A stretch of DNA of 45,879 nucleotides from a virus (Duplodnaviria > Heunggongvirae > Uroviricota > Caudoviricetes). Shown here piece by piece: positions 2,963 to 44,062 of the stretch (position 1 is its first letter; each line of letters starts with the position of its first letter). The translations under genes were made by a program, and so were the position numbers. The notes under the pieces were generated by a model. That model was not told the DNA's origin and searched no databases. It worked only from the letters and a program-made list of their open reading frames with translations. The DNA lies in IMG/VR virus record IMGVR_UViG_3300001687_000020. The stretch is one strand, 5' to 3'.

Positions 2963-4906
2963 TTATAAAATAAAGAAATTCAAATTAATCTTTTCAACTA
3001 ATTTCATTGGTTGAAGCTCAATATTGACATGGAACTGTTTGGTTTTAAGTTCATAGTCGGTTGCCCCAACTTCAACACCATAAGAATACAAACCTCTTCT
3101 TCGCTTAATGTCTTCTAAGAATAAAGTAATGTCTGAAGCAACTCTATCCCAAGTTTCAGCATCGTTTAACTCAAAAATAAAATATCTACAATATTGTTCC
3201 AATGCCTTTTTAACATAAAGGATCATTCTAACAACATTAAGGTCTTGTAAACTACTTGGTTTGGACTGGGAAGTTAGTTGACCCCAGAATACATAACCCT
3301 GAGCGAACTTAACAATTGGGTTAAGTTGCTTCAAATACATATCATCTCGGTCACTTAGAGTTGGGTTATATCGAAGTTCTTTAATTCCATCCAAAGTTCC
3401 TCCGGGGAATCCTACAAAACCTGCCCATACTTCTCTCACTGAATCATTTCTTGGTAATAAATAAGAAGCATGCCAAGTCGGACTAACCCACATATCCTGA
3501 CCTGTGAAGTTATCATAAACCTTATTAAAGTTGCAAAAGAGTGACATATAATAATTATTATATGTATGAGAATTTGTCCTATCCGTTAATTCGTTTGCAA
3601 CCGTGGAGTTATCACTATTATCAATTATTCCTATACAATCCCTTCTTGTGGTACATAGGGTATTAATAGCGGTTTTAACATCGGTGGGATATCCTGCGTC
3701 CCACACAACATTAAAGTAATAACTTTCAGTGTCTAAAACTGACTCTTCGGTGACTGAAGTCATAGGATTTGTCAATAACCCAGTGTATGCTTGAGCAAGA
3801 ATTTGGGTAGCAACTGTGGTATTTAAATTTCCTCCCACTACAAGAGTTCCAACTGAACCCTTAGAAAGTGGAGTTGCATCAGATAACGCAGTTGCCATAT
3901 TGACATAAGATTTTCTAACTTGATAAGTGATTTCCCCGCCTGAGTCAAAATTAGTAGTACTACCAATCCAACTTTGAGTTGCTCCAGTCAAGTTTTTGGA
4001 ACTAAAAACATTAATAGTTCCATTCGTCACACCGGAAGATGCTCCCAACCAACCCCAAAGTTCATTTCCTCGCTGATCCTTTGCTATTACTACATAATTA
4101 GCAGTTCCTGTCTCGGGGTTTGTTTGCCATTGACTAAAATCCTGCTTATTATCACTGATGGTGGCAGAGCCGGCTGTTTCGATTACATCAATATCACCTT
4201 GATTTTTGTCGTAAACTCGGGTACATAAATTGTAGCCAGCAGTTCCCTGCTCTGCTCGTAAAACTGAGGAATAGTTTTCTAAAATCTCATTAATGTAAAT
4301 TGAAGCACCGGCTAAGTCAACTGCAGTTGGGTCAAATGAGATTTCAAAACTTTCAATAATTTGGTCAGTCTCATCAGATTGTCTTTCATAAATATCCAAA
4401 ATGTAAACACCATAATACATTGGATTAGATTGCTGAGTCAACTTAACACTTATTCCATTATAATAATCCCCTCGACCAATAGGATATAAACAACAAATAG
4501 GATAAGTAGTTCCATCTTGAGCCATATTAGTTTCAAGAACTGAAAGACTTGTAGCAGAGGAAATATAACTAAAACTTAAAGTTGTAGTACTATCGCTTTC
4601 ATTCGCGTCAATCCTAATATTGGAATAAGTGGCGTTTGAGGGTAATGCTCTACAACAATAAAGTGATCCTGATTCACCCAAAAAGTTATAAGCAATATAT
4701 GGACCAAGACCATAGTTTTTGGTATAATCAGTTATATCTGGCTCGCCAAACTCAGAAATATAATCCGACCTAGAACTTTTCTTTACTAATTGGTTATCCC
4801 TACCTTTTACACTAAGGAATGAGATAAGTCCCGTAGTTGCCGGAACTGCCTGGACATATGTACTTAGGTCAATAATCTTAGTATATACTCCCGGACTTAT
4901 AGCCAT
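2963..4906 (-). CDS. Tail sheath protein
   Basis: 647 aa; N-terminal SPGVYTKIIDLS and C-terminal sheath domain (RRDCIGIID, LNPIVKF, WGQLT, LQDLNVVRM, FELND, IELQPMKLVEKINLNF). Confidence 0.95.
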   Translation of the reverse strand: MAISPGVYTKIIDLSTYVQAVPATTGLISFLSVKGRDNQLVKKSSRSDYISEFGEPDITDYTKNYGLGPYIAYNFLGESGSLYCCRALPSNATYSNIRIDANESDSTTTLSFSYISSATSLSVLETNMAQDGTTYPICCLYPIGRGDYYNGISVKLTQQSNPMYYGVYILDIYERQSDETDQIIESFEISFDPTAVDLAGASIYINEILENYSSVLRAEQGTAGYNLCTRVYDKNQGDIDVIETAGSATISDNKQDFSQWQTNPETGTANYVVIAKDQRGNELWGWLGASSGVTNGTINVFSSKNLTGATQSWIGSTTNFDSGGEITYQVRKSYVNMATALSDATPLSKGSVGTLVVGGNLNTTVATQILAQAYTGLLTNPMTSVTEESVLDTESYYFNVVWDAGYPTDVKTAINTLCTTRRDCIGIIDNSDNSTVANELTDRTNSHTYNNYYMSLFCNFNKVYDNFTGQDMWVSPTWHASYLLPRNDSVREVWAGFVGFPGGTLDGIKELRYNPTLSDRDDMYLKQLNPIVKFAQGYVFWGQLTSQSKPSSLQDLNVVRMILYVKKALEQYCRYFIFELNDAETWDRVASDITLFLEDIKRRRGLYSYGVEVGATDYELKTKQFHVNIELQPMKLVEKINLNFFIL

Positions 4907-5566: not shown

Positions 5567-6265
5567 TTACACGTAAATATACCATGTAAACACGAGACTT
5601 CTCAAAGAAGTCTTTTCAATGGTTGAAAAAGTTACTCTAGCAAACAAAGTGAAAATCCCACTTGCTCCACCCGCAGAACTAGCATTTATAAATAACCCCG
5701 CTTCATTCACATCATTATTTCCTGGGAAATTACATTCATCGTTTGCTATTGTGGTAGTTACCTTGATTATAAGATACCTATTATTGTTACTTGGATCTTG
5801 TTGATAAGTAACTGAGTCAAAAGCATGTTTAAACCAATAATCTGTTCCTCCCTTATTATGCCAATCAGCATAGATAGTTGAAGTTGAATCAGTTGAAATA
5901 GGAATTTCATCTGCTAACTTAGTATTACTATTTGAGGGTGGAGCAGGAGTTAATGGATCAACTGGACATCCTCCCTGACCTAGTCCGAACCAATAAATTG
6001 CTTCGTTGGCCGCCGAAGTTGTGTCTACATTATTAATATTAAAAATTCTTTCAGCAACCCACTCTCGACCTGCGTAAACTACTAAGTTATTAGTTTGCTC
6101 TACTAAAGTTTTATTCCCTTCGCTATCTACTGAGTGAATTTGGACCATATTTTGAGGTTTCTTAGATGGACCATTGGGAGTCCTAAAACTGCCAACTGAA
6201 TCACCTATACATTTACTGTAGTAATCGTTGACAGTTATTCTTATTTCTTCAACTTTATGTTCCAT
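5567..6265 (-). CDS. Baseplate/tail-collar-fibre-like protein
   Basis: 232 aa; NLVVYAGRE, FGLGQGG, NEAGLF, LFARVTFSTIEKT..LVFTWYI pattern of collar-fibre (DUF3751-like) N-terminal domains. Confidence 0.7.
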   Translation of the reverse strand: MEHKVEEIRITVNDYYSKCIGDSVGSFRTPNGPSKKPQNMVQIHSVDSEGNKTLVEQTNNLVVYAGREWVAERIFNINNVDTTSAANEAIYWFGLGQGGCPVDPLTPAPPSNSNTKLADEIPISTDSTSTIYADWHNKGGTDYWFKHAFDSVTYQQDPSNNNRYLIIKVTTTIANDECNFPGNNDVNEAGLFINASSAGGASGIFTLFARVTFSTIEKTSLRSLVFTWYIYV

Positions 6266-6282: not shown

Positions 6283-6558
6283 TTACTCAGTAAATATAAT
6301 ATAGTCATTCTGAGCGCATCCAGCAGCGGTGCATTTTAGAATTATAACGTCTGCGTCCATCTCTACGGCAGTTAAATCTATTTTATACCACCCATGACTA
6401 ATTTCGGTTGCTGGAGTATTAACACAATTAACAAATGCCCCACCATCTTGTGAAATTTGAACCGTTGCTACAACTCCAGTTTCTGGAGTATTGAAATCTG
6501 TAGCATCTACCATTTTTATAGGGAAATTACTAAATGCTACATTCTTTGTAAAAGGCAT
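6283..6558 (-). CDS. Small beta-sandwich protein (EIxxGWY...GCAQND family)
   Basis: 91 aa; QISQDGGAF, EISHGWYKIDL, GCAQNDY; paralogous to 7022-7363 and the C-terminus of 7381-8253; RBS GAGGAGG. Confidence 0.8.
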   Translation of the reverse strand: MPFTKNVAFSNFPIKMVDATDFNTPETGVVATVQISQDGGAFVNCVNTPATEISHGWYKIDLTAVEMDADVIILKCTAAGCAQNDYIIFTE

Positions 6559-6583
6559 CTTTAAACCTCCTCATTTTATAGTC

Positions 6584-6596
6584 CAATAATTTGTTC
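6584..6596 (-). promoter_or_regulatory. Putative late promoter GAACA-AATTAT-TG
   Basis: Plus strand caataatttgttc, upstream of the RBS of 6283-6558. Confidence 0.7.
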
Positions 6597-6607
6597 AGAT
6601 TTAAAAA

Positions 6608-7011
6608 AGGTAGATATTAGATAGGATTTTTACTAACTAACAAATAGTTTCCATGGTCGATCCTTGATCATTACATAAGAATGCCCGAGTGTTAGTAAGA
6701 ACTATATATTCTTCACCATTTGAAAGTTTACACCCAATCCTTACCACTGGGACAAAACATTCGTTTTCAACACCCTTAACTTTCTCTACCTCTTCATCAA
6801 TTACTATTAAATTAGCTTCATCTGACTCAGAAAAAGTTCCATCCTCTAACTTATAAGTACCATCTTTCACATTATAAAGAGTATCTCCAGTAACTAGCCT
6901 TTCTATATTATCAATAAACCACCAATCTCTAAACTGATTAATACCTTTGATTTTTAGTAACATGTGTTTTCTACCTTCCTTCCTATCTACCTAGCTATCT
7001 AATATCTACCT
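6608..7011. repeat. Perfect 17-bp inverted repeat (6608-6624 / 6995-7011) flanking the 6637-6963 gene
   Basis: aggtagatattagatag vs ctatctaatatctacct; on the minus strand the downstream arm ends in T6 (6603-6608). Confidence 0.95.
6637..6963 (-). CDS. Accessory hypothetical protein (FLCNDQGSTME C-terminal motif)
   Basis: 108 aa; C-terminal AFLCNDQGSTMETI resembles the YLxNDxGKTIE motif of small non-structural phage proteins. Confidence 0.8.
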   Translation of the reverse strand: MLLKIKGINQFRDWWFIDNIERLVTGDTLYNVKDGTYKLEDGTFSESDEANLIVIDEEVEKVKGVENECFVPVVRIGCKLSNGEEYIVLTNTRAFLCNDQGSTMETIC

Positions 7012-7021
7012 CACATATATT

Positions 7022-7363
7022 TTAGGGTGCTCGTAACTGAGCATCTATAAAAACATAGTCATTCTGAGCACATCCAGAAGCAGTAAATTTAAGTATTAAA
7101 ACACTATTAATAAGATCATCTATAGCGATTAAAATTTTATACCAACCATTTCCGATTTCTCTAACCCTAGATTCAGGAACTTGGAAAGCACTTCCGTTTT
7201 TCGATATTTGACAAGAAACACTCTTTCCTGGAGCGGGAGAGGATATATCAGTACTTAAAACCATTTTAAATACTATTTCAACTTTTGGAGTTTCTGTTCC
7301 TATGGGAATTCTATCTCTTTCCCTTTTCCTCCAATTAATCATTTTTGTGCCAATTATAGCCAA
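7022..7363 (-). CDS. Small beta-sandwich protein (EIxxGWY...GCAQND family)
   Basis: 113 aa; QISKNGSAF, EIGNGWYKIL, GCAQNDY. Confidence 0.75.
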   Translation of the reverse strand: MAIIGTKMINWRKRERDRIPIGTETPKVEIVFKMVLSTDISSPAPGKSVSCQISKNGSAFQVPESRVREIGNGWYKILIAIDDLINSVLILKFTASGCAQNDYVFIDAQLRAP

Positions 7364-7380
7364 TGTAATATCCCTCCCCT

Positions 7381-8253
7381 TTATGCTCGGAGATATCCGT
7401 CAATATATACAAAGTCACATTGTAGACATCCAGTAGAGTCAAACGAAATAATAATTGTGTGATTCTCAAATACCGCTGGAGGTAATAAAGTAGAATACCA
7501 ACCTTGACCAATTTCACTACTAGTAATTGGTTGGTATACAAATGGTCCTCCATCTGTGGAGATTAAACAAGTAGCATCCACTCCCAACATTGGGCTTGAA
7601 TAATCGTAGGAAGAAACCATCTTATACATTACTCTAATGTCAAGTATTTCAGTAAGGTCAACTCTACATAAATCGCATCCAAAAGGTGCATCAAAAAGCC
7701 ATGGATCTATAATCCCAGTAGTAGAGTCGATTACTGGACCATCGAAATTAGTGAATCCTCCAGATTGCCATTCCCATCCATCAATAGAAACCTTTTGAGA
7801 TGAACTTTCAACTGTTTCGTCTCCCCCCGGATGTTCATTATAATAATCGTCAATATTTACAGCAAACCCAATATCAATCCAATTAGTATTATCATGGACA
7901 TCTAAATAGTCATGAGCTTCTTCATACCAAGTAGATAATATAAAATAATCATCATATCGAATAGAATCTTGTAATGGATTATTTTGATCTATTGTATTGT
8001 CAAAAGAATATATTCTTACTCTCTTTGGTTTCCACCAATTAAGAACATCTTCAGGAATATTTGCTTCAAACACTAATCCAATTAGAGGATAAGTTGAGGG
8101 ATCTATATTCAACATATATTGGTATAAGTCTTTGAAGAAGTGCTTAAGTAGAGTTTTCTCAGTCCCAAGTTGAAAAGCATGATCAATCTCTGCTTTTAAC
8201 TCAGGATTTAATATCTCTAATACATGACCCGCACTTGTAGTATCAAGTAACAT
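7381..8253 (-). CDS. Structural hypothetical protein with C-terminal EIxxGWY domain
   Basis: 290 aa; C-terminal LISTDGGPF, EIGQGWYSTL, GCLQCDF paralogous to the two flanking genes. Confidence 0.75.
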   Translation of the reverse strand: MLLDTTSAGHVLEILNPELKAEIDHAFQLGTEKTLLKHFFKDLYQYMLNIDPSTYPLIGLVFEANIPEDVLNWWKPKRVRIYSFDNTIDQNNPLQDSIRYDDYFILSTWYEEAHDYLDVHDNTNWIDIGFAVNIDDYYNEHPGGDETVESSSQKVSIDGWEWQSGGFTNFDGPVIDSTTGIIDPWLFDAPFGCDLCRVDLTEILDIRVMYKMVSSYDYSSPMLGVDATCLISTDGGPFVYQPITSSEIGQGWYSTLLPPAVFENHTIIISFDSTGCLQCDFVYIDGYLRA

Positions 8254-8291
8254 ATTTCTTTTTCCTATCTCTAATTGACTTTATCATCCTT

Positions 8292-9155
8292 TTAAGACGC
8301 TTGAAGAATCCTAGAATATGTGTAAATGATAGCGCAATACAACTCTAGTAGAGAAACACTCATATCAACAATTGACACAAAAATGTCTTTAACTGGAATA
8401 GTTCCATGCCTATACCAGGGATAAAATTGATCCTCAACTTTTCTTCTTAATATAGCAATAGTTATTTCTAATTCTTGTAAATCCATTCTTGCCCTTACAC
8501 TGATATATGGAGTTGGGCTAGGAAGAGCAATATCATTACTAGCAATCAAAGCATTTATTTCTGCTTGTGTTTGAAACCAATGAGGATCTCCACTAGTCAT
8601 TTCCTCAAAAGTAACTGTTTTCTCAGGAACTAAGGATTCACTTATTCTTCCTCTTTGGGTACTTTTACCTCTGAAAACTAAAGTTCCTGACTCATTTCTT
8701 TCCAAATAATATTCTAGAATATCTGCGTCAGTTACATCATGGTATTCTAAAACCGAAATTAAAGCTTCTGGGGTTCCTTTTATTTTATATAGGTTAACTA
8801 AATCCAAAAGAAAAGCTACTTTAGTCCTAGTTGATAATAGATTTTCTGGATATGGATAACCAAAACTTCTAATAAACTCTTCAACATGAGTTTGTGGTAA
8901 TGAGAATGCTTCACTAGCATTCTTTTGAGTAGTTACTATAGTTCTAAATGAAGAATACCAATCAATTATAAACTTTCTTAATCTTTTAAAGTCATCGCTA
9001 GCAAAACTAACTTGATCAATAGCGGTAGTGAACCATTTAGTTGCTAATTCTTTATCACCAATAGCGGTATTCCTTAAATTCTCATCTAAAGTCGTGTCAG
9101 CAGTTGGATCTTTTAAAAAATCTAATATCTTCCAGAAATCACCTAATGTAAACAT
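8292..9155 (-). CDS. Baseplate wedge-like protein
   Basis: 287 aa; IRSFGYPY...LVNLYKIKGTPEALISVL resembles the P2 gpI/T4 gp7-type wedge motif YxxKGT. Confidence 0.65.
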   Translation of the reverse strand: MFTLGDFWKILDFLKDPTADTTLDENLRNTAIGDKELATKWFTTAIDQVSFASDDFKRLRKFIIDWYSSFRTIVTTQKNASEAFSLPQTHVEEFIRSFGYPYPENLLSTRTKVAFLLDLVNLYKIKGTPEALISVLEYHDVTDADILEYYLERNESGTLVFRGKSTQRGRISESLVPEKTVTFEEMTSGDPHWFQTQAEINALIASNDIALPSPTPYISVRARMDLQELEITIAILRRKVEDQFYPWYRHGTIPVKDIFVSIVDMSVSLLELYCAIIYTYSRILQAS

Positions 9156-9160
9156 AGTCT

Positions 9161-9754
9161 CTATTTCCTTAGCCTATGAGTATAAACATTTTCTTCGTTG
9201 AAAGAATACTTTATCTCATAATCAAATCTATTTGGATTCAAAACAAACCTTGGAATTATAAAACTACCTAAATGATAAAGTAAACATTTAGTAGTATCTA
9301 AATATCTTATTTTATCATCAACATATATCATGACCCAAGCATGCTTATCAGCTAATACCACTCTTGCCTCAAACTCATACTTTCTCAATATAGAGCAAAG
9401 TAGTATTGCTTGGTCTTCGCAGTCTCCGGTTCCTTTCTTTAAAGTTACTACTGGGTCTTGCCAAATGTCATCTACTTTTTGACCTTCTTCATAGTCTTTT
9501 TTATAACCAATATTTAAAAAAACTGACAAAGCAATCCAATATGGATGTTTAATGAATACATCATATTTAATCTTTTTAAATATTAAAGTAGTCCATCTTA
9601 CAGTTTGAATTTTTCCTATTCCTACTTCTGCTTTACAATATTTTTTAGTTATAAGTTTTCTATTTTCTATATCTTCTCTATCAATCTCTTTCCAATATAG
9701 AGGATTAAATATATTTATGCTCTTAAAAAATGTTTTTACTTTAGTTAGATCCAT
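9161..9754 (-). CDS. Transglutaminase-like cysteine protease
   Basis: 197 aa; GTGDCEDQAILLCSIL, HAWV, YLDTT give a Cys-His-Asp triad. Confidence 0.85.
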   Translation of the reverse strand: MDLTKVKTFFKSINIFNPLYWKEIDREDIENRKLITKKYCKAEVGIGKIQTVRWTTLIFKKIKYDVFIKHPYWIALSVFLNIGYKKDYEEGQKVDDIWQDPVVTLKKGTGDCEDQAILLCSILRKYEFEARVVLADKHAWVMIYVDDKIRYLDTTKCLLYHLGSFIIPRFVLNPNRFDYEIKYSFNEENVYTHRLRK

Positions 9755-9768
9755 TTTTTTAATCCTCC

Positions 9769-9781
9769 TATTTTTTTGTTC
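9769..9781 (-). promoter_or_regulatory. Putative late promoter GAACA-AAAAAA-TA
   Basis: Plus strand tatttttttgttc; predicted +1 A is directly followed by the GGAGG RBS of 9161-9754. Confidence 0.75.
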
Positions 9782-9799
9782 CGAATTGTAACTAAATAT

Positions 9800-9844
9800 A
9801 AAAAATAAGGTAGGCTTGAACTATTGTATGCTCAAACCTACCTT
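9800..9844 (-). terminator. Intrinsic terminator
   Basis: Minus strand AAGGTAGGTTTGAG-CATACAATAG-TTCAAGCCTACCTT-A-TTTTTT; 14-bp stem whose two wobbles are valid only on the minus strand. Confidence 0.85.
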
Positions 9845-9896
9845 TCCCCCCAACCATAAGCCGGACACTAGGAGGTTTATGAGACGCCTGTAGACC

Positions 9897-10496
9897 TTAA
9901 GAGGTCCCTGAGACTTCTTTAAACATTTCTTCAACTACATAACACTCAAACATATTAGTAAGAACTGAGGTTGAATCAGAAATTAAGTCAGTATTGTTAT
10001 ACTTAGAATAATCTCCGGTTAACTTAAAGTCTAAATAAATGTAAATTAATTTTGATAATTTAGTTGTGAGATTATTGTATACTATCGACGAAATATCAGT
10101 ACTCCCAGTTCTTTTATATTGAAGTAATTTATTAATAAGGGTTAGGTCGTCTTGAGTGAGTTGAAAAAGGTTGGTTCTACAATTCTGTCCATCACATACA
10201 TAGTATTGAGTTGTAGAAGGATAAACTATACTTCTATCTCTACAAGTTTTATCCCATGATAGTCTACTTGATATACTTCTAAATTTATACCTATAATGAG
10301 GATACTCATATCCAAAATCAGGAACTGAAGTTGAGTCATTTGCTTCACAAAATAAAACTTCAATAAAACAAGTATGGTCTATTTCAGTTGGATCAATCGG
10401 ATCTATAAACCTAGTATCCTCGATATTCAAAACTCTATTTTCTAAAAATCTAGAAAAGTTATACAATAACTGTGGGCTTATTATTTTATTTGCCAT
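9897..10496 (-). CDS. Hypothetical protein (probably structural)
   Basis: 199-aa ORF in operon orientation; no recognisable motif. Confidence 0.75.
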   Translation of the reverse strand: MANKIISPQLLYNFSRFLENRVLNIEDTRFIDPIDPTEIDHTCFIEVLFCEANDSTSVPDFGYEYPHYRYKFRSISSRLSWDKTCRDRSIVYPSTTQYYVCDGQNCRTNLFQLTQDDLTLINKLLQYKRTGSTDISSIVYNNLTTKLSKLIYIYLDFKLTGDYSKYNNTDLISDSTSVLTNMFECYVVEEMFKEVSGTS

Positions 10497-10503
10497 AGTG
10501 TTT

Positions 10504-10986
10504 TTACTCTGCTATCTCATTAAATATCCAACCCGCTAAAAGGGCAGTAGTAATTCCCAATGTAAAACTAAATCCTGTTTTGTATGAGTTCCACTTTAAT
10601 GCAGTTAAATACTTCTTTTGACTCTTATCTAACTCCTCTCTGTATAAAGAGATGTCTTCTTTCAGCAAATCATTATTACTGATATATAGTTTGATCCTTT
10701 CATCTTTAGATTCTAAAAGTTCTTGGTTAAATATATGAACCTTATTAAGGTTTTCTAATTGCTTGGTTTTTAATACATTAACTTCACGTAAAGTCTCTAT
10801 TTCTTCCAATACTTTTTTCCACTCTTCCACTTCTAATCCTATTAGTTCTTTATTACATGTCTGTCCAGGTTCAAGAAATACTGGATTAAGATTTAATTCT
10901 TCTCCTCTAGCACAAAAAGCAAGGAATAAGATAAGGAATATTACTATGAGTCCTACTATAAGTAAATCCTTTCTAAATTCACTCAT
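10504..10986 (-). CDS. Signal-peptide, coiled-coil, C-terminal TM protein (spanin-like)
   Basis: 160 aa; hydrophobic N-terminus, coiled coil, C-terminal FTLGITTALLAGWIF; abuts 10986-11342. Confidence 0.55.
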   Translation of the reverse strand: MSEFRKDLLIVGLIVIFLILFLAFCARGEELNLNPVFLEPGQTCNKELIGLEVEEWKKVLEEIETLREVNVLKTKQLENLNKVHIFNQELLESKDERIKLYISNNDLLKEDISLYREELDKSQKKYLTALKWNSYKTGFSFTLGITTALLAGWIFNEIAE

Positions 10987-11342
10987 TATAAACTCCTTAT
11001 TTTATCTATTACATCAGATGCTTTAGAAGTATTTATCTTAACTTTTTCTTTAACTGAAGCAATTTCTTTATCTAATTTCTTATTCTCCTGGATTAAAGTA
11101 GATATTTCATTCCCTTTCCAATCATCCATTTTTTCTAATTCTTTAATCTTATCAGAGTTTTGTTTCCTTTTCTCCTCTTTCACTTTCAGTTTTTCGTCTA
11201 GTTCTTTCTTCTGTAAATTTAATTTGGTTTTCTCTAGAAGGTAATGACCCCTTCCTTTCAATATTATTATTCCTAGTATCGCCAGGGCTATTGTCCCTAG
11301 AAGTATAAAGAATGCCTTTAGGTTCCTGAATATGGATTTCAT
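10986..11342 (-). CDS. N-terminal TM plus coiled-coil protein (i-spanin/Rz-like)
   Basis: 118 aa; AFFILLGTIALAILGIIIL then Lys/Glu-rich coiled coil. Confidence 0.6.
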   Translation of the reverse strand: MKSIFRNLKAFFILLGTIALAILGIIILKGRGHYLLEKTKLNLQKKELDEKLKVKEEKRKQNSDKIKELEKMDDWKGNEISTLIQENKKLDKEIASVKEKVKINTSKASDVIDKIRSL

Positions 11343-11523
11343 TTTCTTGTCTCCTCTTTCTTTCTTCTAACTCCTTATTAGTAACTGGAAACTCTGGAAC
11401 ATGACCAAAAGCGTTAACTAATTCCTGTCTTCTTTGAGATTCTGAGTATTCTTTTATTCCCCTTTCTGGTAATTCGGAGTATGCCCTATTCGTCCATTCT
11501 TTCGGCGTTTTCGGTGTTGCCAT
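11152..11523 (-). CDS. Hypothetical protein overlapping the Rz-like gene
   Basis: 123 aa; RBS GAGG; fills gap 11343-11485 and overlaps the next gene by 191 nt in another frame. Confidence 0.5.
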   Translation of the reverse strand: MATPKTPKEWTNRAYSELPERGIKEYSESQRRQELVNAFGHVPEFPVTNKELEERKRRQENEIHIQEPKGILYTSRDNSPGDTRNNNIERKGSLPSRENQIKFTEERTRRKTESERGEKETKL

Positions 11524-11791
11524 TTTTCTTTTCCTCTATTAAACTAGCTATCTGAAACACACTTCTTGAAAATAAAATAACTAAAATACCAGAAGTTAAA
11601 ATCGTAGTCCACTGGGTTCCGGTAATTTTTCCAGCGACTAAAAGTTTAGTGGAAATATAACTAATAGCAGCCAAAACCCAAAGTTTTACTGAGATTAATG
11701 TTCTAAGTAATTTAGCTAACCATAAAGCATAAAATTCTTTACTAAAAGCATTATGCTCACAATTTATCTCCATCGTCTTCTTCGCTCCCAA
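11486..11791 (-). CDS. Holin-like two-TM protein
   Basis: Hydrophobic LISVKLWVLAAISYI and WTTILTSGILVILF segments with charged C-terminus. Confidence 0.55.
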   Translation of the reverse strand: MGAKKTMEINCEHNAFSKEFYALWLAKLLRTLISVKLWVLAAISYISTKLLVAGKITGTQWTTILTSGILVILFSRSVFQIASLIEEKKNGNTENAERMDE

Positions 11792-12224
11792 ATAACTTAA
11801 ATAGTCCTACAAACAAAGTTCCTTTCTCAAGGAATGGTTCATAGTCCAATACTATTAGCCTTACAAATTCATAGTCTTCGTGATTAAAAACTAAGCAATG
11901 TTGCCCATTACGAATCTCTGTTTTTAATCCATTAATAACTTTATCAGCTTGAATGATATCTTTATACCCTCGATATCCTCTATAAGTCGATAAAGCCATT
12001 TTAATTAAAGACGAAGTAGTATGAGGTTCTTCTTCTCCTGACTTAGAGTAAACTCTAGTAGTAACTCTTGGATTAACTATTATGTCAGGAATATAATATA
12101 CTCTTTCTTCATTAGAAATTCTTTTCTTATTTGGTTTAATAACTTTCGGTTGAATAACTTTGTCTTGCTTTGGATCCATTAAGTGTGTTTCTTGTTCTTC
12201 GATAGTTTCATTAAACTTATCCAT
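11757..12224 (-). CDS. Hypothetical protein
   Basis: 155 aa; RBS GAGG; preceded by late-promoter motif. Confidence 0.75.
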   Translation of the reverse strand: MDKFNETIEEQETHLMDPKQDKVIQPKVIKPNKKRISNEERVYYIPDIIVNPRVTTRVYSKSGEEEPHTTSSLIKMALSTYRGYRGYKDIIQADKVINGLKTEIRNGQHCLVFNHEDYEFVRLIVLDYEPFLEKGTLFVGLFKLFGSEEDDGDKL

Positions 12225-12243
12225 TTCATTGACCTCTTTCTTA

Positions 12244-12256
12244 TAATAGTTTGTTC
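12244..12256 (-). promoter_or_regulatory. Putative late promoter GAACA-AACTAT-TA
   Basis: Plus strand taatagtttgttc, upstream of the RBS of 11757-12224. Confidence 0.75.
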
Positions 12257-12299
12257 TGTCAAAAAATTCTACTCGTCACTCTTCTTTCCAACTATTAGG

Positions 12300-12579
12300 T
12301 TCTCCCTTTGTAGGGGAAAAATACATAGATTTTAATAAGTCTAAGAAAAATCTTAATCTACTTTAAAAGAGACTTTAACTAAAACAGATTTTTCTCAGAA
12401 CCGTTCTAGAAGTTCATAGTAAATTTATTTCATATCAGTATAGGGCATTTCTTATAGAAGAATATCACATAGAACTGTTCTGAAAACTTAATCAGTCTTA
12501 AAATATTACTTTTGATAAGTTAAAGATTTTCAGTTCGGTTCTGAACATTTTATAAGAAATTGCCCCTACAAAGGGAGAA
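12300..12579. other. Non-coding palindromic element, candidate ncRNA / MITE-like element / origin
   Basis: 17-bp perfect terminal IR (12300-12316 / 12563-12579), internal AGAAC-n-GTTCT palindromes, long internal hairpin 12441-12568; no ORF of 60 aa or more. Confidence 0.6.
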
Positions 12580-12592
12580 AAAAATTTAATCC

Positions 12593-12766
12593 TTACTTAG
12601 AACTCTTCTCGATCTTATGACCAAGACCCACAATACCCAAAGCTGCTCCAAGCATAAGAAGTGCATTACCAACTTCAACTCTACCAAAAAACTCTAAGAC
12701 TGCAGCAATACCAATAATTCCTGCCGCAGTCCAAGTTTTCCAACCACCCATAATGTCTTTAAGCAT
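12593..12766 (-). CDS. Small two-TM protein (holin-like), 57 aa, absent from ORF track
   Basis: RBS AGGAGG; MLKDIMGGWKTWTAAGIIGIAAVLEFFGRVEVGNALLMLGAALGIVGLGHKIEKSSK. Confidence 0.85.
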   Translation of the reverse strand: MLKDIMGGWKTWTAAGIIGIAAVLEFFGRVEVGNALLMLGAALGIVGLGHKIEKSSK

Positions 12767-12775
12767 TCTATCCTC

Positions 12776-13588
12776 CTAGTTTAAACAAGTCCCACAATTC
12801 GAGCAAAAATTAGACCCAGAAGAAGAAGACCTGCCACAAGTAGAGCAAGTCAACTTTTCCCTAGTTAAAAGAGGCTTTTGAATAGGGACTTGTTCTTCGG
12901 TTATGCCTCTTAACTTAAGAGTTATAACATGAGAAATTCCTAACCCTCCAATTGTAGTAGAATCAAACTTTTGATTACTATGAGATCCTTTAACTGTAAT
13001 ACCTTCATCTTTTTGGATATCTCTAATGTCAGCCTGCATATTTAAATTCTCAGCTTGATTACAACATTTAGTAGAGTTATAAAAAGAATGAACTCCTCTT
13101 GATAAATTTTCAGTAGTACTACTCAAATAACTCCAACCAATACCTGGTTCAAATTTACCAGAATAAGTCGATGTTCCGCAAGGAAAATCACTTTTTATAG
13201 TAAAAGGATACCCTGTATAATACTGATAGTGTTCCTCAAACTGAAATTCTACTCTGACTATTCCATCGTCAATTCTATCGCCTCGGTAATTAGCAATCTC
13301 TCTAGTTTTCTGAATAAACTTAAACTTATTGCTTACGTCACTTCCTTTGAGAAATCCCTCTAAAAAGAGAGTATTTTCCCTTCCTGGACCACTTCCAGGA
13401 ATAACAAGTCGGGAGCGATCTAAGACATCCTGACCATCAATAGAAACTTTTACTATCACCCTCCTTGAGTCCATGTTTTTTAAACCAATTGAATATTCTG
13501 ATCCAAATGGTAAAGAAACATAGCCATCTTTTTCTCTCAGAGTTTGACCATTACATTGAATTGTGACTATAAAATTACTAGTAAACAT
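12776..13588 (-). CDS. Conserved-type phage protein with C-terminal double zinc ribbon
   Basis: 270 aa; LPFGSEYSI.LKN...VSIDGQDV N-domain and CSTCG...FCSNCGT C-terminus; RBS AAGGAGG. Confidence 0.85.
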   Translation of the reverse strand: MFTSNFIVTIQCNGQTLREKDGYVSLPFGSEYSIGLKNMDSRRVIVKVSIDGQDVLDRSRLVIPGSGPGRENTLFLEGFLKGSDVSNKFKFIQKTREIANYRGDRIDDGIVRVEFQFEEHYQYYTGYPFTIKSDFPCGTSTYSGKFEPGIGWSYLSSTTENLSRGVHSFYNSTKCCNQAENLNMQADIRDIQKDEGITVKGSHSNQKFDSTTIGGLGISHVITLKLRGITEEQVPIQKPLLTREKLTCSTCGRSSSSGSNFCSNCGTCLN

Positions 13589-13676
13589 TACTTCCTCCTT
13601 TTAACAGGTTACTGACTAGAACCTCTCAATTCTTAAAGTCAGTTGGAAAAGGTTAGAGTGACGAGTAGAAACTATA

Positions 13677-14117
13677 TTAATTATCTCTATATCTTCTTAG
13701 AGAGTGAATATCGGATTTTATCGAGGATATTTCTTTTTCTATATTAGCAAAAGTAGTTTGAAGACCATTTCTTACACTCCCTTGTAATTCTGTAATTTTT
13801 TCTTCTAATCTCTTAAAACCTTCTTCCTGCCTAGTATGAATAATATCTATAGATCTAGTCAACTCGGATCTTAAGTTTGCTAAGACTAATTCAGTTTCTT
13901 TCTGACGAGCAAACTTAATGTCACAATCTTTTCTTCTGTCATTGATTTCTTCTTGCATGGCGGATATCTTCTCCTTGCATGATGTTTTACATTTCTCTAT
14001 TTCGTCGAGACTTTCTTTTTTCATGCCTCTAATATCCCTCCATATAAACGCTAAAATACCTACAAAAAGTAGGCCAAATATTGTTTCTACTGCCGTAGGA
14101 GTCATATATTCCTCCAA
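13677..14117 (-). CDS. Single-TM coiled-coil protein (holin/XhlA-like)
   Basis: 146 aa; IFGLLFVGILAFIW then long coiled coil. Confidence 0.6.
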   Translation of the reverse strand: MEEYMTPTAVETIFGLLFVGILAFIWRDIRGMKKESLDEIEKCKTSCKEKISAMQEEINDRRKDCDIKFARQKETELVLANLRSELTRSIDIIHTRQEEGFKRLEEKITELQGSVRNGLQTTFANIEKEISSIKSDIHSLRRYRDN

Positions 14118-14148: not shown

Positions 14149-15267
14149 TTAAACAGGGCTCATTTGTATTGGTGGACCACATGTCATTTTGTCATTTAAC
14201 TCAAAAGTAAAGTCTTCGTTTTCATATCCAGCTTTAGTTAATATTATTCTAAATGGTGATCCATCATATGTAGTGTTTGTATCAAGATTATCATCTGGAT
14301 TTTCACAATAAGACCTTACTAATTCGATACCTATTCCGCCTGTAGAATCAGTTGACCCAATATATATATCACTTCCGTGTTGATCTTTTATGTTGACCGA
14401 AACCCCGTCCATAGGAAGGCTATTTTCATCTATGACCGAAGTTTCAAATGAATATGACCTATATACCCTCCCACTGGCTAATTCTCTCCAATTAACCTTC
14501 CAAGAGTCAGTATTGATATCTCTAAGAGTGAAAGTCATTGGTGAAATGAAAGTTTCTTGGACATTTACTAATGCTTGACACCCTCTTACATATAAATCAT
14601 TAACACTTTTTCCATCAGCACTTTCGTCCAAACTTACTGCCCAAAAATGCATGTTAAGAATTCTAATTTGATTCATAGTTCCTGGGTAAAAATTAGAAAA
14701 CCCCCGGTATGTACCCCCTTGAAAAGTTAAGTCATAAATATCAACTAAATCTGCGTCTCTCCCTATAGCATAAACATTTTCCCATATATTAGACCAGACT
14801 CGACCATTTTCAAATTGAACTACGCCAAACATTGAACCACGATTGAAAAGTCTACATCCGTAAAGATTCAAAACTGCGTCATTCTTATTTTCTCCATATA
14901 ATATGTAAACTTTACCAATTGCATTTTGCATATGGATATCACATCCACCTCGGATATCCTTAGTGGCTACATTATTTGTCCATCCAAATCGTAAAGTTCC
15001 TTTTACAATATCGATAACTTTTTCATACTCAGCAACGAATATCTGGGGAATATAAATTTGTTTATATGCTTCTTGAACATATGAGTCATTCGTAATTAAA
15101 AGTTTTGCTCCAAGAGTATACTGATAGTCATTATGTTTCGTAATTACTCCCCATCCACCTGCTTGATCTTCAATGTAAAGATTTTCCATTAAATTGTAAT
15201 AACTTACAGGCGTTCCCATTCCGTCGATCGTGATTTCATTAGTTCCTGCGTTATACGTAACAGCCAT
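14149..15267 (-). CDS. Putative beta-helix tail/structural protein
   Basis: ORF track 14149-15309; likelier start ATG 15267 (MAVTYNAGT) after GAGGTAAGGGG; beta-rich repeats and an Ig-like C-terminus. Confidence 0.65.
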   Translation of the reverse strand: MAVTYNAGTNEITIDGMGTPVSYYNLMENLYIEDQAGGWGVITKHNDYQYTLGAKLLITNDSYVQEAYKQIYIPQIFVAEYEKVIDIVKGTLRFGWTNNVATKDIRGGCDIHMQNAIGKVYILYGENKNDAVLNLYGCRLFNRGSMFGVVQFENGRVWSNIWENVYAIGRDADLVDIYDLTFQGGTYRGFSNFYPGTMNQIRILNMHFWAVSLDESADGKSVNDLYVRGCQALVNVQETFISPMTFTLRDINTDSWKVNWRELASGRVYRSYSFETSVIDENSLPMDGVSVNIKDQHGSDIYIGSTDSTGGIGIELVRSYCENPDDNLDTNTTYDGSPFRIILTKAGYENEDFTFELNDKMTCGPPIQMSPV

Positions 15268-15338
15268 TCCCCTTACCTCTTTTTTTACTAGATAAAATTT
15301 TCCAGCCATTTTAAATCCTAAATTTGATATTTAAAATA

Positions 15339-37441: not shown

Positions 37442-37457
37442 TCTGAGGAGGAAGGAG

Positions 37458-37925
37458 ATGGATTTTCCAAGAATTTATCTTTATGGTTTACGATTAAAAT
37501 GGACAAAATTGATAATACGAAGGAAAGATATTCTTCAAATTATCTATACTTACTATTTATCTAAGTTCAAAGATATTATAACATTTGGAGATTTTAATTA
37601 CTTCATTACTTATGAAAATCCATCTCCTCACCATCTCAAACCATCAGAATTGGGTCCTATACGTATATTTGGTTTAAATCTACATATAGCGATAGGACCT
37701 AATTCTGAGAACAATTTTAGACCTAGATTATTATTTATAGCTAGAGAAGTTTTTAGTTTCCGAAAAATAGATATGTTTACACCTCGGGATTTACAGGAGA
37801 GAGAAAAAACGTCAGAGATGCTCAAAGTTTTCTATATTGACATAGATCCATTGAAACTGGATAGGGTAGAACATTATAGTGAATTGGGAGAGAAAAAATT
37901 CATTTATAAAGGACTTTCAAAATGA
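37458..37925 (+). CDS. YxxYL paralogue family member
   Basis: 155 aa; LQIIYTYYLSKFK; YLYGLRLKW and GPIRIFGLNL shared with next ORF. Confidence 0.8.
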   Translation: MDFPRIYLYGLRLKWTKLIIRRKDILQIIYTYYLSKFKDIITFGDFNYFITYENPSPHHLKPSELGPIRIFGLNLHIAIGPNSENNFRPRLLFIAREVFSFRKIDMFTPRDLQEREKTSEMLKVFYIDIDPLKLDRVEHYSELGEKKFIYKGLSK

Positions 37926-44007: not shown

Positions 44008-44020
44008 TAGTAATATGTTC
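44008..44020 (-). promoter_or_regulatory. Putative late promoter GAACA-TATTAC-TA
   Basis: Plus strand tagtaatatgttc, just upstream of the AAGGAGG RBS of 43493-43993. Confidence 0.75.
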
Positions 44021-44045
44021 TAAGCTTAATAGATATAAAAAAAGA

Positions 44046-44062
44046 GAACTATATATATTAAT
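44046..44062 (+). promoter_or_regulatory. Putative early promoter motif AACTATATATATTAATA
   Basis: Mirrors 29438-29456; precedes the second plus block. Confidence 0.5.

Follow-up and report, generated by a model that had tools for sequence, protein, structure and literature searches.

Inverted repeats around two gene families of large phages most likely act as closing helices between the 5' and 3' untranslated regions of messenger RNA

Layout of the locus

The stretch of DNA analysed here, hereafter the window, is the 45,879-nucleotide (nt) IMG/VR virus record IMGVR_UViG_3300001687_000020, and the region under study (positions 6,584 to 13,676), read on the minus strand, belongs to the structural module of a large uncultivated myovirus. 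In this region, long inverted repeats stand on either side of whole genes and delimit two cassettes, the first around a gene for a 108-residue protein (the p108 family) and the second around a gene for a 270-residue protein with a zinc ribbon. A sequence-only reading had proposed that these brackets are terminators whose split stems hold whole accessory genes in their loops. The comparison with related phages makes it most likely that they are conserved helices in RNA, closing the 5' untranslated region (UTR) of a gene onto its 3' UTR, and not terminators of that kind. The features concerned are as follows.

2963..4906: tail sheath gene.
6584..6607 (minus strand): T6 run at 6602-6607, 5-nt spacer and promoter-like motif GAACA-N6-TG at 6584-6596, ahead of gene 6283..6558.
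6607..6624 (minus strand): 3' arm of cassette 1, pyrimidine-rich, beginning 13 nt past the stop codon, its end able to pair with the Shine-Dalgarno (SD) region.
6637..6963 (minus strand): 108-residue gene of the p108 family, inside cassette 1.
6995..7012 (minus strand): 5' arm of cassette 1, purine-rich, with a (Y)AGR repeat motif, 32-49 nt upstream of the ATG at 6963.
9769..9844 (minus strand): comparison junction, with an ordinary intrinsic-terminator-like hairpin at 9807-9844, a T-run and GAACA-N6-TA at 9769-9781.
12244..12266 (minus strand): T6 run at 12261-12266, 4-nt spacer and promoter-like motif GAACA-N6-TA at 12244-12256, ahead of gene 11757..12224.
12267..12293 (minus strand): bipartite 3' arm of cassette 2 (12285-12293 and 12267-12282).
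12300..12579 (minus strand): nested non-coding element with its own 17-20-bp repeat (12300-12319 / 12560-12579).
12593..12766 (minus strand): gene for a 57-residue hydrophobic (membrane) protein, inside the loop of cassette 2.
12776..13588 (minus strand): zinc-ribbon gene, 270 residues, beta-sandwich plus C-terminal zinc ribbon, neighbour of the tail-sheath gene in relatives.
13606..13643 (minus strand): H-type leader pseudoknot, directly upstream of the SD sequence at 13594-13598.
13641..13670 (minus strand): bipartite 5' arm of cassette 2 (13655-13670 and 13641-13649), 54-82 nt upstream of the ATG at 13588.

Cassette 1 is formed by a perfect 17-nt inverted repeat (6608-6624 / 6995-7011) with 370 nt separating its arms, and one G:U pair lengthens the helix to 18 base pairs (bp; 6607-6624 / 6995-7012). 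In cassette 2, 16 perfect nt (12267-12282 / 13655-13670) are accompanied by a second 9-nt segment (12285-12293 / 13641-13649), and the loop of about 1370 nt holds two open reading frames (ORFs; 12776..13588 and 12593..12766) as well as about 290 nt of non-coding DNA. The contents first described for the two loops, one gene in the former and two genes with a non-coding element in the latter, were thus confirmed. Perfect inverted repeats of at least 14 nt with arms at most 3 kb apart number four in the whole window, and three of them lie in this region, which is more than chance. All three have intergenic arms placed close against ORF ends, with arm-only duplex energies of -26.0, -38.5 and -32.5 kcal/mol, and the closing helix of cassette 1 is retained in both the minimum-free-energy and the centroid fold of its RNA.

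On the minus strand, each cassette 3' arm runs at once into T6, followed by a short spacer, GAACA-N6-TR and a ribosome-binding site (RBS). The coordinates originally given for this order (stem, U6, spacer, GAACA-N6-T(A/G), RBS) at three minus-strand junctions hold. At the third, the stem placed at 9800-9844 is indeed an ordinary hairpin (9807-9844, 15 pairs, then a T-run) and was the top terminator-like site in a terminator scan; its loop has 8 nt. The supposed resemblance between the 6608 arm, AGGTAGAT, and the 9807 stem comes down to a shared short motif.

The nested repeat, absent from the sequence-only reading, is of the same kind as the two cassette repeats. The element that it encloses has three AGAAC-N(1-2)-GTTCT palindromes, no ORF and a fold z of -3.15; a structured RNA and a group of binding sites for protein are both conceivable. 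Elsewhere in the window, a plus-strand array of small genes contains the fourth perfect inverted repeat (37453-37467 / 37614-37628, 15 nt, arms 146 nt apart).

The bracket of the zinc-ribbon family

The zinc-ribbon protein has more than 1200 homologues. Eighty viral loci were fetched (related loci are numbered with an L below), and the 65 distinct, non-redundant ones were used for the helix counts. Phages with a sheath 55-57% identical to that of the window show the order zinc-ribbon gene, 220-residue gene (homologue of 5567..6265) and sheath gene, and the zinc-ribbon gene keeps this syntenic place near the tail-sheath gene in 74/83 fetched loci. Judged by this comparison, it belongs to the conserved core of a large clade of big phages and is not the sporadic accessory gene that it had been thought to be.

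Brackets were sought by local helix alignment between the 160 nt ahead of the start codon and the 100 nt that follow the stop codon, used instead of RNAduplex, which gave sprawling and uninformative duplexes on the whole 160-nt flanks. The homologous gene in L011 and L015 is bracketed too, by an inverted repeat of quite different sequence. Over the whole set, a helix of 9-46 bp was found in 41 of the 65 loci, with the 5' arm ending at -50 to -75 from the ATG (typically about 60 nt) and the 3' arm starting at most 25 nt past the stop codon, mostly at +7 to +17. When only Watson-Crick pairs were scored and the null was built by pairing upstream and downstream flanks from different loci (permuted), the difference was strong (Mann-Whitney p = 1.7e-19), and 44% of the loci lay above the 99th percentile of the null. 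The 28 significant helices have 26 different arm sequences. Covariation of the arms in homologues, which the sequence-only reading had named as a check, was positive for both gene families.

Within the zinc-ribbon helices, non-Watson-Crick positions were G:U in 15 cases and A:C in 3. Since G:U can be tolerated only where the sense-strand RNA folds, this bias argues for selection on RNA rather than DNA.

The 5' arm of cassette 2 (-54 to -82) occupies the position typical of the family, and the 3' arm has been displaced about 490 nt from the stop codon by the 57-residue gene and the nested non-coding element, neither of which occurs in any of the sampled relatives. A distal 3' arm was also sought in the loci that have no proximal one; only L021 gave a candidate, weak and AT-rich, which was not accepted.

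The hydrophobic ORF in this loop calls to mind fold-back inhibition of the hok type, in which pairing of the two ends would keep the cassette 2 message inert until 3' trimming and so control the 57-residue membrane peptide; the full-length hok mRNA is closed by a covarying 5'-3' stem, tac/fbi (PMC9841398). Such control is very unlikely here, as relatives preserve the helix together with the zinc-ribbon gene yet all lack the 57-residue ORF, and the helix leaves the SD sequence uncovered. Nor was an antisense RNA gene or promoter identified, although no search was aimed at antisense RNA.

The model of the zinc-ribbon protein (predicted local distance difference test, pLDDT, 77.5) runs from a beta-sandwich through a disordered linker and a beta hairpin to the zinc ribbon, and the fold search returned generic beta-sandwich neighbours only, which indicate no function. 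PHROGs and Pfam searches with both enclosed proteins gave no match except the zinc ribbon. Genes resembling DUF559 or Vsr-like endonucleases, probably free-standing homing endonucleases, lie inside the zinc-ribbon leader of L014 (3824-4936) and L065 (1683-2435). In L014 the old arms are separated, partly mismatched and decaying, and in L065 the leader is duplicated, with a second copy of the pseudoknot leader ahead of the inserted gene.

The bracket of the 108-residue family

A word-indexed search with the 108-residue protein found no relatives, while exhaustive HMMER searching found about 24 distant full-length homologues at 27-38% identity. L097 and L100 have 17-nt arms, 94% complementary, in the same relative places as those of cassette 1, and the homologues in L097, L100 and L104-L121 carry an arm at the position equivalent to that in the window. 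In the sample of 18 distinct loci, drawn from IMG/VR and from homologue look-ups, helices of 13-32 bp were found in 14; their 5' arms lie at -50 to -15, and their 3' arms begin 1-13 nt past the stop codon. As in the other family, non-Watson-Crick positions favour G:U over A:C (7 against 2).

The arms of this family share a motif. The 5' arm (67% purine) has AG every four bases, as in TAGATAG or CAGACAG, and the 3' arm (34% purine) is its pyrimidine-rich complement. In the leaders of L097, L101 and L104-L121, and in the window (6964-7012), the whole 5' UTR is made of the four-base periodic (U/C)AGR motif, which often yields stop codons in all three frames (7/14 arms). The periodicity suggests that a repeat-binding protein recognises the leader, or that the leader insulates the gene from translation coming from upstream. 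Because the rest of the leader as far as the SD sequence consists of the same motif, the 3' arm is also able to pair with the SD region; this alternative exceeds the shuffled control in 7/14 loci, and in the window it amounts to 11 bp ending 7 nt before the ATG.

The surroundings of the gene differ between phages: the homologue in L097 stands beside genes for an RF-1-domain protein, a NUDIX protein and a deoxynucleoside triphosphate pyrophosphohydrolase, and that in L099 lies at a contig end after sugar-metabolism genes. Within the family the RBS of the next gene usually follows directly after the 3' arm, so that the unit is embedded in operons. The protein model (pLDDT 88) is a small beta fold with a weak resemblance to the oligonucleotide/oligosaccharide-binding (OB) fold (Z about 4 to eIF5A, EF-P and cold-shock domains), and these weak matches assign no function.

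Specificity of the brackets

A bracket score was computed for the 76 called genes of the window, among which only the 108-residue gene stands out at single-gene range, and for the 882 genes of all fetched loci, where 37 pass. Thirty-two of these belong to the two families, and the other five are about what the null leads one to expect by chance. On this sequence evidence, the brackets appear essentially confined to two particular gene families and are not a punctuation used across the genome; the notion of a general system of the genome is therefore not sustained.

In the window, apart from the 3' arm of cassette 2, and in the 41 and 14 related loci, the arms lie between the upstream stop codon or promoter motif and the RBS on one side, and 1-17 nt past the stop codon on the other. 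Each gene family thus brings its own bracket along, at set distances from start and stop, which speaks against stems that caught accessory genes in their loops.

Promoters, transcript ends and termination

In most zinc-ribbon loci a promoter-like block stands right before the 5' arm, made of an AT-rich element, ...ATATATAGT, then AGAACA and an A/T-rich stretch ending in TAAAT(G/A). GAACA occurs within 30 nt upstream of the 5' arm in 33/41 loci, mostly 11-15 nt before the first base of the arm. In the late promoter of phage AR9, AACA-N6-T(A/G), the last base is the transcription start (PMC5312081), and if the present clade behaves like AR9, the 5' arm would be the very 5' end of the mRNA in most zinc-ribbon relatives. 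Taken as a bare pattern, GAACA-N6-TR shows no enrichment in the window (21 matches, 13.6 expected), and its intergenic copies match the promoter-like consensus conserved in relatives. A consensus of this kind has thereby been obtained for an uncultured clade.

The AT-rich element TTAATATATATAGT, which precedes AGAACA...TAAAT(G/A) in many relatives (L017-L096, upstream of the 5' arm), may represent a second promoter class. It is also found on the minus strand of the window at about 44040-44060, upstream of the GAACA site at 44008-44020, and a degenerate copy at 13672-13683 (minus strand) adjoins the 5' arm of cassette 2.

The layout of the window invites the view that the brackets are split-stem intrinsic terminators, in which helix and U6 would release RNA polymerase only from transcripts that hold the distant 5' arm, so that the enclosed unit ends before the next promoter. 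Both 3' arms, like the hairpin at 9807-9844, run straight into T6 and then into a promoter-like motif, and the three other GAACA sites of the window have neither an upstream stem nor a T-run. Yarnell and Roberts are said to have shown in 1999 that an oligonucleotide added in trans can stand in for the upstream half of a terminator hairpin. The split-stem view is nevertheless unlikely. A T-run follows the 3' arm in only 4/41 zinc-ribbon loci and about 3/14 of the 108-residue loci, and a separate ordinary hairpin-plus-T terminator lies just downstream of the 3' arm in 15/41 zinc-ribbon loci, where the next GAACA motif was found downstream in 13/41. In the 108-residue loci the next RBS usually follows directly. 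Closing a loop of 370-1370 nt during the pause at the U-tract is kinetically unfavourable, and, of the three junctions, only 9807-9844 has a compact, G+C-rich hairpin with a short loop, the cassettes having loops of 370 and about 1370 nt. The rarity of T-runs and the presence of separate terminators in zinc-ribbon relatives indicate that the long helix is not the terminator of that family. For this phage alone, the T6 after the 3' arms and its absence at the GAACA sites that lack a stem make a terminator role a reasonable secondary hypothesis. The earlier proposals that long-range pairing of the two ends terminates or processes transcripts stand, in spirit, as regards selected long-range pairing on the sense-strand RNA, and find little support as regards the U-run, present at both 3' arms of the window and rare in relatives.

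A further alternative is excision by an RNase III-type enzyme, which would cut the long-range duplex and free the cistron or cistrons from a polycistronic late transcript, the paired stub stabilising the mRNA as in ribosomal RNA (rRNA) precursors; in an extreme version, a phage RNA ligase would circularise the product. The duplexes of the window measure 18, 16+9 and 17-20 bp, and those of relatives reach 24-32 bp. In Bacillus subtilis mRNAs, RNase III does act on duplexes whose span exceeds 100 nt (PMC11780869), and the arms of the window are internal to operons, where cutting would matter. Excision is a tentative possibility, falling short of probable, because about half of the conserved helices have 9-16 bp, below the usual two helical turns, and most zinc-ribbon relatives already have the 5' arm at the predicted 5' end, where excision is unneeded.

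A pseudoknot in the zinc-ribbon leader

Between the 5' arm and the SD sequence of the zinc-ribbon gene lies a pseudoknot of two interleaved helices, S1 (13637-13643 with 13611-13617) and S2 (13620-13624 with 13606-13610). In an alignment of 65 zinc-ribbon leader sequences (A2), 98.1% of the alignment cells are paired, against 26-39% when the partners are slid by 1-3 columns. Compensatory changes occur in 11 of the 12 pairs, and none of 500 shuffles reached the observed covariation.

A covariance model found the pseudoknot once per locus, always before the zinc-ribbon gene, and once in the window; it is present at L009 2446-2506 and L010 2445-2506 as well. The model also detects it in two cultured phages outside the set of sequences from which it was built, Xanthomonas phage XacN1 and Stenotrophomonas phage RAS14, with entirely different helix sequences. 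Since these two have the pseudoknot and lack the bracket, the pseudoknot appears to be older and the bracket a clade-specific addition. A scan against Rfam 15 yielded nothing that reached the gathering score in the window, and for 12100-13800, which takes in the leader, nothing even with E allowed up to 10. A short sequence likeness and the 7-deazaguanine genes of the phage had brought a preQ1-I riboswitch into consideration for this leader; it was rejected, as there is no Rfam match and the pseudoknot topology is different.

By comparative sequence criteria, the pseudoknot is an undescribed and very well supported leader element. It is probably a regulatory sensor, a candidate operator for a protein or a ligand, and its presence in cultured XacN1 and RAS14 makes it accessible to bench testing.

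Cassettes as mobile or invertible DNA

At the level of DNA, the arms could be the terminal inverted repeats of a small mobile cassette, comparable to a MITE (miniature inverted-repeat transposable element), to an integron-like filled site or to an invertible segment. The 108-residue gene and its arms occur in differing neighbourhoods (here in the tail module, but among genes of nucleotide metabolism or early genes in L097 and L099), the arms of that family share a motif, the loop of cassette 2 has taken in extra DNA, and homing-endonuclease-like genes lie in the leaders of L014 and L065. Against this stand the excess of G:U over A:C in both families and the purine/pyrimidine asymmetry of the strands, the fixed distances to start and stop codons, and the synteny of the zinc-ribbon gene noted above. 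Neither a recombinase nor a transposase nor any target-site duplication was seen at the arms, and the 17-mer of the nested repeat gave only 4 matches in IMG/VR, which is chance level.

Across both cassettes, collinearity holds among seven independent assemblies of this phage, made from different samples, with 0 single-nucleotide polymorphisms (SNPs) in the arms and three in the 108-residue ORF; assemblies can hide minor forms. No empty and no inverted form occurs among them, which tells against both the integron-like capture and the inversion switch that had been suggested. The arms are also unlike attC sites, as they bracket the ORF instead of forming a single 3' site and contain no GTTRRRY cores, and no integron integrase was found among the ORFs scanned, which took in only part of those of the genome. 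As to traits of MITEs or insertion sequences, the arms are single-copy in the window, there are no flanking direct repeats, and the models of the two enclosed proteins show no transposase-like fold, nor a recombinase or nuclease fold. A DNA-level cassette is very unlikely.

Genomic context

Megablast and distant blastn searches of GenBank phages with the region, and with the non-coding element at 12300-12579, gave no match. The protein encoded at 14149..15309 has no relative in IMG/VR, and the neighbouring protein 7381..8253 has near-identical copies only, apart from one match at 48% identity on a 1.4-kb contig; gene order is identical across all eleven contigs that bear it. The genes on either side of cassette 1, 7022..7363 and 6283..6558 (both minus strand), are tandem paralogues: their proteins are 45% identical over 73 residues, and a 51-nt stretch at the 3' ends of the genes has 82% nucleotide identity, so the 108-residue unit is placed between duplicated genes. 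The gap between the zinc-ribbon gene and the 220-residue gene (6283-12224) spans about 6.3 kb and a dozen genes in the window, among them one for a transglutaminase-like protein (9161..9754), and the two genes adjoin directly in L011, L014 and L015. In the strain variant L003 (9156-9223), about 68 bases more than in the window are present at about 351-352.

Proposed mechanism and comparison with known systems

The comparison of related loci demonstrates the pairing, its fixed position relative to start and stop codons, its covariation, the tolerance of G:U on the sense strand and the restriction to families. The reading that we consider most likely is that the brackets are 5'UTR-3'UTR closing helices, and their class of function is probably the post-transcriptional control of a discrete mRNA unit. 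Each helix would pair the 5' UTR of one gene with its own 3' UTR, giving a closed mRNA with paired ends, and would be an inherited trait of two unrelated gene families. It would act after transcription by delimiting the unit. The paired ends may be shielded from 5'-end-dependent and 3'-exonucleolytic decay, as in hbs (PMC5737220), or may be offered as a double-stranded site to RNase III (PMC11780869, PMC3868564), and the helix may also set the accessibility of the RBS. For the 108-residue gene, the 3' arm could choose, in the manner of icaR, between the distal purine-rich arm, which leaves the SD sequence free, and the SD region, which would be blocked. For the zinc-ribbon gene, the helix would be coupled to the adjacent pseudoknot, which abuts the SD sequence and is probably the actual sensor. 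In this phage both helices now seem to lie inside longer transcripts, and extra DNA appears to have entered the loop of cassette 2; the cargo would thus be a secondary event inside a pre-existing RNA structure. With T6 right behind each 3' arm, the helix may in addition halt transcription before the next promoter is reached.

Several observations weigh against this reading. About one third of the zinc-ribbon loci have no clear bracket, and the same is true of cultured XacN1 and RAS14, so the bracket is dispensable. At 9-15 bp, many of the helices are short compared with what RNase III classically cuts. Neither 5' arm of the window has GAACA before it, cassette 2 retaining only the TAATTAATATAG element; both arms are therefore probably internal to longer transcripts, and protection of a 5' end would need prior processing. 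In the 108-residue family, the shared motif inflates cross-locus pairing and makes the permuted null high, and sequence-specific recognition of that motif, even at the level of DNA, retains some probability.

Pairing between the two UTRs of one mRNA is already known from hok, hbs and icaR. In the B. subtilis hbs mRNA, described by Braun, Durand and Condon, a 14-bp pairing of the 5' UTR with the 3' UTR (2017, PMC5737220) modulates the access of RNases to the leader and couples stability with translation. The likeness is close, as a helix of about 14 bp, comparable in length and likewise outside the ORF, joins the UTRs of one short monocistronic mRNA. In hbs, however, this concerns a single host gene with an effect shown by experiment, whereas the present helices come from two phage families with dozens of covarying examples and are known from sequence alone; in the window they enclose up to 1.37 kb with several elements and are followed by a T-run. 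In Staphylococcus aureus icaR, pairing of the 3' UTR with the SD sequence can block the latter and forms a duplex on which RNase III can act (Ruiz de los Mozos et al. 2013, PMC3868564). The 3' arm of the 108-residue gene can likewise pair with its own SD region, but it pairs most strongly with a distal decoy arm, an arrangement in which the SD sequence stays free, so that two pairings compete in place of one.

The tac/fbi stem of hok/sok is similar in running end to end between the 5' and 3' parts of the full-length mRNA, in its phylogenetic covariation and in closing the molecule (review, PMC9841398). It differs in that no antisense RNA was found here, by searches not aimed at one, the conserved enclosed genes are not small toxins and activation by 3' trimming would be conjecture. 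Long-range RNase III substrates of B. subtilis mRNAs (PMC11780869) and the stems of rRNA precursors also bring together segments hundreds of nt apart that flank a functional RNA, whereas cleavage of the present helices is hypothetical and many of them are shorter than typical substrates. With Rho-independent terminators the window shares the order of stem, U6 and next promoter, of which 9807-9844 is a regular example; the loops of 370-1370 nt, against 3-10 nt, the rarity of the U-run in relatives and the separate canonical terminators that often follow the 3' arm set the brackets apart. No relevant literature on gene-bracketing repeats in phages was found.

Implications for phage biology

The attractive idea of genes captured in terminator loops has been corrected, and end-to-end UTR pairing of bacterial-type mRNA, studied in only a handful of genes (hok, hbs and icaR), gains two families. 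What appears to be new, on comparative grounds, is the occurrence of two families side by side with large comparative support, a transcription start predicted to fall at the arm, the tolerance of the helix for loops of kilobase size that hold inserted cargo, and an undescribed pseudoknot leader.

A bolder view, quite improbable in our judgement, is that the brackets are a phage device that makes mRNAs functionally circular by bringing the stop codon within a few nt of the gene's own RBS. The zinc-ribbon pseudoknot would span the gap, and terminating ribosomes could re-initiate on the same message unless a protein or small-molecule signal engaged the pseudoknot or the pairing of 3' arm and SD region. 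If this were true, the pseudoknot would be a new class of riboregulator that governs a tail-module protein throughout a large clade of big phages, and the loop would accept extra cargo, such as the 57-residue gene and the nested element, with control kept.

For the closing helices as such, the dozens of independent compensatory variants in each family constitute stronger comparative evidence than exists for the founding examples. The presence of the bracket in two unrelated families suggests a recurrent strategy of phages, in which a gene is packaged together with its own post-transcriptional control.

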